From the sequence record PQ471516.1: a stretch of DNA of 64,000 nucleotides; one strand, 5' to 3'. Positions 59,274 through 59,399 of this stretch are shown piece after piece. The DNA is from Escherichia phage Turkey5. The translations under genes were made by a program, and so were the position numbers. Numbering within the stretch: the first letter of the stretch is position 1; each line of letters opens with the position of its first letter. The notes beneath the pieces were generated by a model. It was not told the origin of the DNA and did no database searches. It saw only the letters and a list, made by a program, of their open reading frames with translations.

Positions 59274-59305
59274 TTTGATTCTCCATTATAAGGGAACATT
59301 TGATG

Positions 59306-59313
59306 TATTTATA
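59306..59313 (-). promoter_or_regulatory. T4-type late promoter motif TATAAATA upstream of the baseplate operon
   Basis: Exact TATAAATA on the minus strand, about 33 nt upstream of ATG 59273. Confidence 0.5.
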
Positions 59314-59315
59314 CG

Positions 59316-59344
59316 TGGAACAAAGTTGATTTTGGTGCTATAAT
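59316..59344 (+). promoter_or_regulatory. sigma70-type promoter (TGGAAC - 17 bp - TGcTATAAT) for the gp55-like gene, back-to-back with the late promoter
   Basis: Extended -10 TGCTATAAT at 59336-59344; the -35 resembles the 9552 promoter. Confidence 0.5.
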
Positions 59345-59353
59345 AACATTGAT

Positions 59354-59370
59354 GGTACAAGGATTGTACC
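59354..59370 (+). promoter_or_regulatory. stem-loop in 5' leader of the gp55-like gene
   Basis: GGTACAA-gga-TTGTACC, 17 nt upstream of the GGAGAG RBS. Confidence 0.3.
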
Positions 59371-59399
59371 AATTGGTTTCAAAACATGGAGAGTTAATA

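Follow-up and report, generated by a model that had tools for sequence, protein, structure and literature searches.

A putative conserved divergent promoter module with a leader hairpin beside the gp55-like late sigma factor gene of a RaK2-like jumbo coliphage

Escherichia phage Turkey5 carries a spacer of 126 bp between a gene of its baseplate module, which is read on the minus strand, and the gene for a late sigma factor resembling gp55, which is read on the plus strand. Which signals does this spacer hold, and how might they order transcription in the two directions? We investigated this question in a stretch of 64,000 nucleotides of the phage genome (PQ471516.1), called the window here, to which positions refer unless stated otherwise. 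A sequence-only reading of this DNA had proposed back-to-back late and early promoters with a leader hairpin. Our analysis led to a related reading, to which we assign a probability of about 0.72: the spacer would be a conserved three-part divergent promoter module of RaK2-like jumbo phages, made up of a late promoter, a promoter of a second class (class-2, middle-like) and a leader hairpin.

The window region 57000-61500 was 99.6% identical to Escherichia phage vB_EcoM_JNE01 (355.6 kb, Asteriusvirus) and 82-85% identical to 121Q, PBECO4 and similar coliphages. By sequence, the source of the window is a RaK2-like jumbo coliphage. A more sensitive search with 1 kb around the locus matched 71 RaK2-like jumbo phages, whose hosts were Klebsiella, Salmonella, Cronobacter, Erwinia, Yersinia, Pectobacterium, Serratia and Xanthomonas. 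The genes on the two sides of the spacer and their ribosome-binding sites (RBSs) are as follows:

53403-56066, minus strand: hub/lysozyme gene (ORF list, PHROG)
56078-58216, minus strand: structural gene (ORF list, PHROG)
58228-58542, minus strand: baseplate wedge gene (ORF list, PHROG)
58542..59273, minus strand: virion structural protein gene, 243 aa, first of the baseplate/virion module (ORF list, PHROG)
59280..59284, minus strand: Shine-Dalgarno sequence GGAGA of that gene, TCTCC on the plus strand (sequence)
59388..59391, plus strand: Shine-Dalgarno sequence GGAG, 8 nt ahead of the gp55-like ATG at 59400 (sequence)
59400..60239, plus strand: gp55-like late sigma factor gene, 279 aa (PHROG, BLASTP, tblastn)
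60226..63414, plus strand: SbcD-like (gp47-like) and SbcC-like (gp46-like) genes (phrog_100, phrog_77)

The first minus-strand gene begins with an ATG at 59273-59271, and its module matched phrog_12050, phrog_7145, phrog_11190 and phrog_13211. On the other side, the gp55-like protein matched phrog_12791 (1e-150) and phrog_234 (1e-16), both late sigma factor families; together with the baseplate wedge and hub genes, this confirmed the flanking genes as they had been named before. We aligned the spacer from 15 phages, which represent at least four genera (Asteriusvirus, Mimasvirus, Eneladusvirus and Alcyoneusvirus) as well as unclassified phages, and found a mean column identity of 65%. At the minus-strand RBS (T-CTCC), columns T18 and C20-C23 were invariant in all 15 phages and T19 was nearly so, and CATGGAG at the gp55-like RBS was kept in most relatives. 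The order gp55-like, SbcD-like, SbcC-like is that of 55-...-47-46 on the T4 map, and the SbcD-like and SbcC-like genes probably share a transcript with the gp55-like gene.

We then considered how closely the sigma factor resembles T4 gp55. BLASTP gave 25% identity to T4 gp55 over 121 aa (E 8e-4), with the first ~140 residues of the phage protein lying N-terminal of the aligned region, and tblastn matched cyanophage gp55 at ~1e-8. A Pfam search with the protein matched nothing, a PDB sequence search returned no meaningful match, and single-sequence phmmer did not reach T4 gp55. From these comparisons, the 279-aa protein is a gp55 homologue, and the homology is distant because neither Pfam nor the PDB sequences yielded a match. 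As only 25% of the aligned residues are identical to T4 gp55, its DNA specificity is assumed in what follows. The genome also encodes a sigma70-family protein (composite positions 265407-266192; Pfam Sigma70_r2 and r3).

On the minus strand, the spacer holds a late-type element, and two more such motifs lie further along the module:

59306..59313, minus strand: late-type -10 element TATAAATA, with the conserved core ATAAATA at 59306-59312 (motif counts, conservation, orthology to CBB Porf_243)
59300, minus strand: predicted start of late transcription at an A, six nt past the motif, with a leader of ~27 nt (placed from an A at 25/35 sites)
53382..53406, minus strand: another TATAAATA (53382-53389) and an ATAAATA (53400-53406), both late-type motifs (motif search)

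The element at 59313-59306 stands 32 nt before the minus-strand ATG at 59273. The second exact copy that had been claimed at 53382-53389 was also present (53389-53382 on the minus strand), and the motifs at 53382-53406 precede a gene for a 162-aa protein with a lysozyme domain (52876-53364). The 8-mer itself was not enriched in the 64 kb, with 2 copies against 6.1 expected. Since it was under-represented and had only two sites, we regarded it as the wrong motif and used the 7-mer ATAAATA for the census instead; the census of the 8-mer that had been proposed picks up just those two of the 11 ATAAATA sites in the window and overlooks the other 9.

All 11 ATAAATA copies in the window lay upstream of a same-strand start codon, at a distance of 17-57 nt, and 9 of them fell in non-coding DNA, which makes up 2.1 kb of the window. 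For the genome-wide count, we used a composite of JNE01 segments and the window, and calculated the expectation with a first-order Markov model. The results showed that ATAAATA is depleted (52 copies, ~170 expected). Promoter-placed copies, defined as those 10-70 nt upstream of a same-strand start, accounted for 35 of the 52, with a peak at 30-40 nt, and the motif was purged from the remaining genome in both orientations. The placement of ATAAATA is far from random. Among the downstream genes tested, most encode virion, tail or baseplate proteins, and CTAAATA variants of the late motif stand before two giant genes at 15000-26387.

Directly 5' of ATAAATA, the base was unconstrained in the 35 promoter-placed sites (A12 C4 G10 T9), and at the orthologous late site it was T, C or A on the minus strand across relatives. 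The selected motif in the RaK2-like group is the 7-mer ATAAATA, and the T4-like first T is incidental. The sequence-only reading had described an exact T4-type late motif facing the baseplate operon. A late-type element does face the baseplate module, but its T4-like exactness is partly coincidence, because the first T is conserved neither genome-wide nor at the orthologous site. Six nt past ATAAATA, which is the +1 position in T4 geometry, an A was enriched in the promoter-placed sites of the whole genome (25/35). At the orthologous spacer, TATTTAT (the plus-strand view of the core) was invariant in 23 related sequences, and its distance to the minus-strand ATG was 28-35 nt in most sequences and 44 nt in XaC1 and L029.

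On the plus strand, the promoter of the gp55-like gene comprises the following elements:

59316..59322, plus strand: -35-like element TGGAACA of a putative class-2 (middle-like) promoter (alignment, class scan, CBB Table S6)
59336..59344, plus strand: extended -10 TGcTATAAT, TGCTATAAT (sequence, conservation, GenBank annotation of the orthologous site)
59351..59352, plus strand: predicted start of the gp55-like mRNA, a G or A 7-8 nt past the -10 hexamer (standard sigma70 geometry)

The extended -10 at 59336-59344 bears out a sigma70-type promoter facing the gp55-like gene, as had been proposed. TGnTATAAT was kept in 13 of the 15 phages, the -10 hexamer was nearly invariant, and columns T75, T78, A79, T80, A81, T83 and A84 were invariant. 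RaK2 and KP13-7 are without the TG of the extended -10 and have TGAATA in place of TGGAAC. In the GenBank record of Yersinia phage fHe-Yen9-03 (LT960552.1), the orthologous TGGTATAAT is annotated as minus_10_signal. The TGGAAC hexamer (59316-59321) is separated by 17 bp from the -10 hexamer and matches TTGACA at only 3/6 positions; in the alignment of relatives its TG was invariant, and TGRRAC stood at a fixed distance. A generic sigma70 scan did not list this promoter because the scan requires a -35 match, and the overall count of that scan was at chance.

The plus-strand promoter sequence is TGGAACAAAGTTGATTTTGGTGCTATAAT, which fits a class of TG(A/G)(A/G)AC(A/G) followed by ~13 nt and (T)GnTATAAT. 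We searched the genome for the pattern TGRRACR-N9-13-T(G/A)nTAnA(A/C)T and found 13 sites against 1.4 expected, an enrichment of about 9-fold, with all sites on the plus strand. These class-2 sites precede the gp55-like gene, the genes for primase and gyrase B, and a gene cluster that includes DNA polymerase. The consensus promoters of the phage form a separate class, TTGACA-N17-TGTGATATAAT behind A-tract UP elements. In the window (e.g. at 6358-6670 and 36382-36492) they precede genes for an ATPase and a Lon-like protease, and in the genome as a whole they cluster at 220-340 kb. The gp55-like promoter shows neither TTGACA nor an A-tract UP element: its -35 position reads TGGAAC, and it has no A-tract because the DNA upstream is the late motif. 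The earlier label of an early, extended -10 promoter holds for the extended -10, but "early" is doubtful, as the TGGAACA class precedes DNA-synthesis genes, and "middle/pre-replicative" is probably the better term for the gp55-like promoter. A leaderless, extended protein beginning at an in-frame ATG at 59352 was also considered and rejected, since relatives (e.g. WPEC3 and CBB) either lack this ATG or have it in another frame.

Next, we compared the arrangement of the two promoters among the phages. Invariant columns of the spacer alignment lay at both RBSs, in TATTTAT, at the TG of the -35-like element, in the -10 hexamer and in parts of the hairpin, and 8 additional IMG/VR contigs kept TATTTAT, the -35-like TG, the -10 hexamer and the hairpin. 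TATTTAT stood 26-28 nt from the plus-strand -10 hexamer in 23 of 23 sequences, and the predicted starts of the two promoters are ~51 bp apart. In Pseudomonas phage MIJ3, which is more distant (PA5oct group), the gene order and the minus-strand ATAAATA were kept, with a canonical TTGACT-N17-TAAAAT in place of the class-2 promoter. A second divergent pair of like design was found in the genome at composite position 170622. It is true, as had been pointed out, that the sigma gene sits beside a promoter that its product would recognise, but this is mostly a consequence of a divergent boundary between late and pre-late genes.

The third element lies in the leader of the gp55-like mRNA:

59353..59371, plus strand: 5'-proximal leader stem-loop (fold, covariation, uniqueness in the genome)

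The stem-loop GGTACAA/GGA/TTGTACC occupies 59354-59370, and T59353-A59371 could add an eighth pair. It ends exactly 17 nt before the RBS GGAG (59388-59391), so that the 7-bp stem-loop described at this distance is indeed present, and it proved to be conserved and covarying. Its conserved core stem is formed by 59354-59358 and 59366-59370 around a conserved loop at 59359-59365 (AAGGATT), which in Turkey5 can close to a GGA triloop. Covariation was assessed in an anchored alignment of 17 distinct sequences with a 6-pair stem. The five core pairs formed in all 17, three pairs showed compensatory double changes with 3-4 pair types each, and six G-U/U-G cells in the alignment fit the plus-strand RNA only. 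The observed covariation score was reached by none of 500 shuffles, and pairing was 94%, compared with 34-48% when the partner strand was slid by 1-3 columns. The outer stem covaries, but there is hardly any change in the 7-nt loop A(A/C)GGAU(N) or in the two pairs that close it (A-U, C-G); at the equivalent place, RaK2 and KP13-7 carry a hairpin of unrelated sequence. Judged by this covariation, the leader hairpin is a conserved structured RNA element. In the phages examined (CBB, Munch, A4), the stem starts 8-9 nt past the -10 hexamer, corresponding to +2/+3 of the predicted transcript.

The thermodynamic stability of the hairpin was unremarkable relative to shuffled sequences (z = -1.6). 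No other copy was found in the window or the genome, indicating a single-copy element, and an Rfam search of 59200-59480 with E up to 10 returned only three chance-level snoRNA/lncRNA matches (E 1.9-5.5). We looked for a leader hairpin at the other class-2 promoters and found that it is not common to them; as other class-2 promoters are without one, leader hairpins as a general class-2 feature were ruled out. GC-rich leader hairpins occur at a subset of early promoters. A second hairpin predicted over the RBS was not conserved in relatives and was discarded.

Several other explanations of the locus have to be weighed. The plus-strand promoter could be immediate-early, used by the unmodified host sigma70 holoenzyme through the extended -10 alone, with TGGAAC irrelevant. 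TGnTATAAT is a perfect extended -10, extended -10 sigma70 promoters do not need a -35, and the late sigma is needed ahead of the late genes; the canonical promoter at the equivalent position in distant MIJ3 and the TGATATAAT upstream of T4 gene 55 also suit this explanation. However, irrelevance of TGGAAC sits poorly with the invariant TG and with TGRRAC held at a fixed distance. Moreover, the enriched combined motif goes with replication genes, not with the early region, and the evident early promoters of the phage are of the full-consensus TTGACA type with UP elements. We therefore consider immediate-early use possible but doubtful. As for the minus strand, TATTTAT might be an A/T-rich UP-like element of the plus-strand promoter instead of a late promoter, which would agree with its constant spacing to the plus-strand -10 in 23 sequences and with the A/T-rich DNA directly upstream of TGRRAC at other class-2 promoters. 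Against this, TATTTAT is missing at most other class-2 promoters, its distance to the minus-strand ATG fits the genome-wide peak of late sites, and the 7-mer is purged elsewhere in the genome in both orientations. The UP-like and late roles are also compatible with each other, and a purely UP-like element appears very improbable.

The hairpin, in turn, could be a gene-specific operator, at which a phage or host protein bound to the A(A/C)GGAU loop governs how stable the late-sigma mRNA is or how well it is translated, as at the translational operators of T4 gp43 or RegA. The near-invariance of the loop and its two closing pairs beside a covarying outer stem would be expected of a binding site, the hairpin is single-copy in the genome, and ACGGAU recurs beside the start codon in MIJ3. 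Yet RaK2 and KP13-7 swap the whole loop and still keep a hairpin, which argues for structure over sequence, and with 17 nt between hairpin and RBS there is no sequestration. We know of no binding protein for an A(A/C)GGAU hairpin, and we regard an operator as rather unlikely. A pattern scan flagged the same stem-loop as terminator-like (8 pairs, tail ATTGGTTT), which raises the idea that, as an intrinsic terminator or attenuator, it restricts how much transcription reads through into the sigma gene. The T-rich tail, however, occurs only in the Turkey5 lineage, and relatives are A-rich at this place (e.g. TATATAAAAACA); because the tail is not conserved, the hairpin does not behave as a terminator. 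The stem also has just 3 G-C pairs, and no conserved alternative anti-terminator pairing was found, leaving this explanation with hardly any weight. For the role of the hairpin, the sequences make a stem-loop that protects the 5' end the most likely candidate and a protein operator the second; the operator is considered at all because the loop sequence is conserved.

The reading that we prefer is thus the three-part module of late promoter, class-2 promoter and leader hairpin. The analysis shows that its motifs are present, conserved and placed non-randomly, that the plus-strand promoter belongs to class 2, and that the hairpin covaries at the RNA level; from these we infer the form of polymerase at each promoter, the start sites, the timing and the role of the hairpin. 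TGGAACA (59316-59322) and TGcTATAAT (59336-59344) would start transcription at ~59351, and the class-2 promoter would express the gp55-like gene and probably the SbcD/SbcC-like genes behind it. Its reader may be host sigma70, through the extended -10, or the phage sigma70-like factor, through the unusual -35. As class-2 promoters precede DNA-replication genes, the late sigma is most likely made together with the pre-replicative (middle) genes. The mRNA would open almost at once with the stem-loop (+3 to +21), which most likely shields the 5' end from 5'-end-dependent decay or else serves as a gene-specific protein-binding site. The gp55-like sigma would then guide core polymerase to ATAAATA sites, among them the copy that lies 51 bp away and points towards the baseplate genes. 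There ATAAATA (59312-59306) would act as a T4-style late -10 element for host core RNA polymerase with the gp55-like sigma, and leftward transcription of the baseplate/virion genes would begin at ~59300.

As the polymerase footprints predicted for the two promoters overlap, a polymerase on the late site could reduce any further production of the sigma factor. A stronger version of this idea is that the module is a feedback device, in which the late holoenzyme on ATAAATA occludes the -35 of the sigma promoter and a hairpin operator tunes the sigma mRNA. The late and sigma -10 elements are fixed 26-28 bp apart and the starts lie ~51 bp apart, and a late holoenzyme would therefore be expected to cover the -35 region of the sigma gene. 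If this were true, occlusion and the hairpin operator (the A(A/C)GGAU loop, acting on mRNA stability or translation) would together govern how strong the late switch is and when it comes. On the sequence as it stands, we consider such a device improbable.

The locus offers a clean, conserved test site for the ordering of transcription in RaK2-like jumbo phages, a group that is used in therapy and biocontrol work. Because 126 bp hold one late-class promoter, one putative middle-class promoter and the late-sigma leader, a single construct could test polymerase use and interference.

We also compared the locus with known systems. At T4 late promoters, gp55 acts with gp33 and the gp45 clamp to read TATAAATA at -10 (Geiduschek and Kassavetis 2010, as cited in PMC5259590). 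Turkey5 shares with them an A/T-rich, -10-only element, the ATAAATA core, the A at the +1 offset and the position before virion genes, and both phages encode a gp55 homologue and keep the 55-47-46 gene order. By sequence, the late site belongs with T4-type late promoters in its TATAAATA-like -10, its non-random placement and the presence of a gp55-family sigma in the genome. In CBB, gp33 and gp45, the late co-activators of T4, were reported as not detected (PMC5259590). The first T is part of the T4 consensus but not of the Turkey5 consensus, and Turkey5 has CTAAATA variants. The gp55-like protein, at 279 aa, is longer than T4 gp55 (185 aa).

T4 middle promoters combine a sigma70 -10 with a MotA box (TGCTTtA at -30) that replaces the -35, and sigma-cascade phages encode their own sigma70-like factor. 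The plus-strand promoter resembles both systems in joining a good -10 to a non-canonical conserved upstream element before replication and late sigma genes, and Turkey5, like the sigma-cascade phages, encodes a sigma70-family protein. The upstream element differs: in Turkey5 it is TGRRACR, ~16-17 bp from the -10, in contrast to the T4 MotA box at -30. For the hairpin, 5'-terminal stem-loops reportedly stabilise E. coli mRNAs, an example being the ompA leader. The Turkey5 hairpin is similar in that it would begin no more than about 2-3 nt from the predicted mRNA 5' end and leaves the RBS free, but its loop sequence is conserved, which a pure stabiliser of the ompA type does not need.

The closest comparison is with CBB and GAP32 (Buttimer et al. 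2017, PMC5259590). Our literature search for transcript, start-site or timing data on Asteriusvirus or RaK2-like phages found none; the RaK2 genome paper makes no mention of promoters, and the PA5oct paper gives no detail of use on its gp55-like gene. In CBB/GAP32, ATAAATA was linked to structural genes, and a divergent RpoD-like class with a TGAAACG -35 was linked to DNA-synthesis genes and the gp55-like gene (PMC5259590). Porf_243 (ATAAATACTTGATA) and Porf_244 (TGGAACGTTTTTTAAAATTGTGGTATAAT) are predicted at the orthologous locus, four nt apart (Tables S6 and S7), and the tables also give CTAAATA late variants and the pair Porf_234/Porf_235. CBB/GAP32 and Turkey5 have the same orthologous spacer, motifs, orientation and gap of 3-4 nt, and the gp55-like promoter of Turkey5 fits the divergent RpoD-like class and is orthologous to Porf_244. 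Its -35-like element is TGGAACA, whereas that of CBB is TGAAACG, and the -35 forms TGGAACG/TGAAACG of Table S6 match the Turkey5 element; the T4-like 5' T of the late site is present in Turkey5, unlike in CBB. In both phages the promoters are bioinformatic predictions. The pair has thus already been predicted in sister phages, down to the orthologous site, so that the hairpin alone is new among the features of the locus and the advance is modest. In the text of the CBB paper that was searched, the pair is not treated as a module, and neither the fixed spacing nor the leader hairpin is described. To these predictions our analysis adds selection statistics (depletion and positional enrichment), the reassignment of the plus-strand promoter from the "early" class, the fixed spacing and a covarying, gene-specific hairpin.

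We found late-type motifs elsewhere in the window, where a divergent pair faces structural genes located 32-38 nt downstream of each ATAAATA.

Window 30695-30806: divergent late/late pair, with ATAAATA on the minus strand at 30733-30739 and on the plus strand at 30768-30774.

ATAAATA is missing from two giant genes on the minus strand, of 2120 and 1628 aa, and AACTAAATATATA was found upstream of both (window 21363-21500 and 26388-26499). This sequence is a CTAAATA variant of the motif, which likewise occurs among the entries of Table S7 for Pectobacterium phage CBB (PMC5259590). 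Two ATAAATA motifs (53382-53388 and 53400-53406) belong to a 162-aa gene on the minus strand (window 52876-53364), which matched residues 727-885 of phrog_13211, the profile for the adjoining 887-aa hub/tail-lysozyme protein (window 53403-56066, minus strand). Judged by this profile match, the 162-aa gene is a stand-alone copy of the lysozyme part of the hub protein, lying directly downstream of the hub gene.

We also identified full-consensus sigma70 promoters within the structural region, ahead of genes for an ATPase and a Lon-like ATP-dependent protease, as well as a gene for a sigma70-family protein in the composite genome.

Window 6358-6670: tandem array of two to three full-consensus sigma70 promoters, TTGACA-N17-TGTGATATAAT, preceded by A-tracts.
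Window 36382-36492: full-consensus sigma70 promoter sequence of the same form, behind A-tracts.
Composite genome 265407-266192 (L037; phage JNE01 about 266.1-266.9 kb): sigma70-family protein of 261 aa, with Pfam Sigma70_r2 and r3.

Region 4 of the 261-aa protein was not detected by Pfam. Immediately 3' of the stop codon of its gene lies a class-2 motif, the putative middle-type promoter with a TGRRACR -35-like element.

Hairpins were found both at gene ends and in leaders.

Window 12044-12076, 33041-33073 and 38779-38812: palindromic hairpins, nearly identical at all three sites, where convergent genes end.
Composite genome 311-328 kb (L038): early promoters (CTTGCAA ... TATAAT) that recur as a series.

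Each of the three palindromes consists of an A-run, GGAGAGC/GGGAGAAC ... complement and then a T-run, and they look like bidirectional intrinsic terminators made from a single reused sequence. About 10 nt after each repeated early promoter there is a GC-rich leader hairpin (GGGGAGAA..TTCTCCCC), followed by very short ORFs. At composite about 8070-8130 (L033), a hairpin and T-run (GGTGATA..TATCACC TTTTTTTT) lie within a few nt downstream of a class-2 motif, an arrangement that could yield a very short transcript or act as an attenuator. The site at composite 163117-163170 is superficially similar; it is more likely the terminator of the upstream gene overlapping a class-2 motif, because the hairpin starts 1-2 nt downstream of the -10 and hence upstream of any predicted transcription start.

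Relative to the window, JNE01 is offset by 84185 nt at position 1, rising to 84913 nt by position 57000, indicating that the JNE01 counterpart of window 1-57000 is longer by 728 nt.

Two further observations concern the regions upstream of gp55 or gp55-like genes in other phages. T4 gene 55 is likewise preceded by an extended -10 (TGATATAAT), whose last base lies 26 nt upstream of the ATG (L040, the T4 sequence, 7160-7200). In Pseudomonas phage MIJ3, ACGGAT, the conserved loop sequence of the RaK2-like leader hairpin, is present inside GCACGGATGC (L041, the MIJ3 sequence, 1160-1176), which occupies the Shine-Dalgarno position of the MIJ3 gp55-like gene. The loop of the RaK2-like hairpin may be derived from an ancestral RBS.
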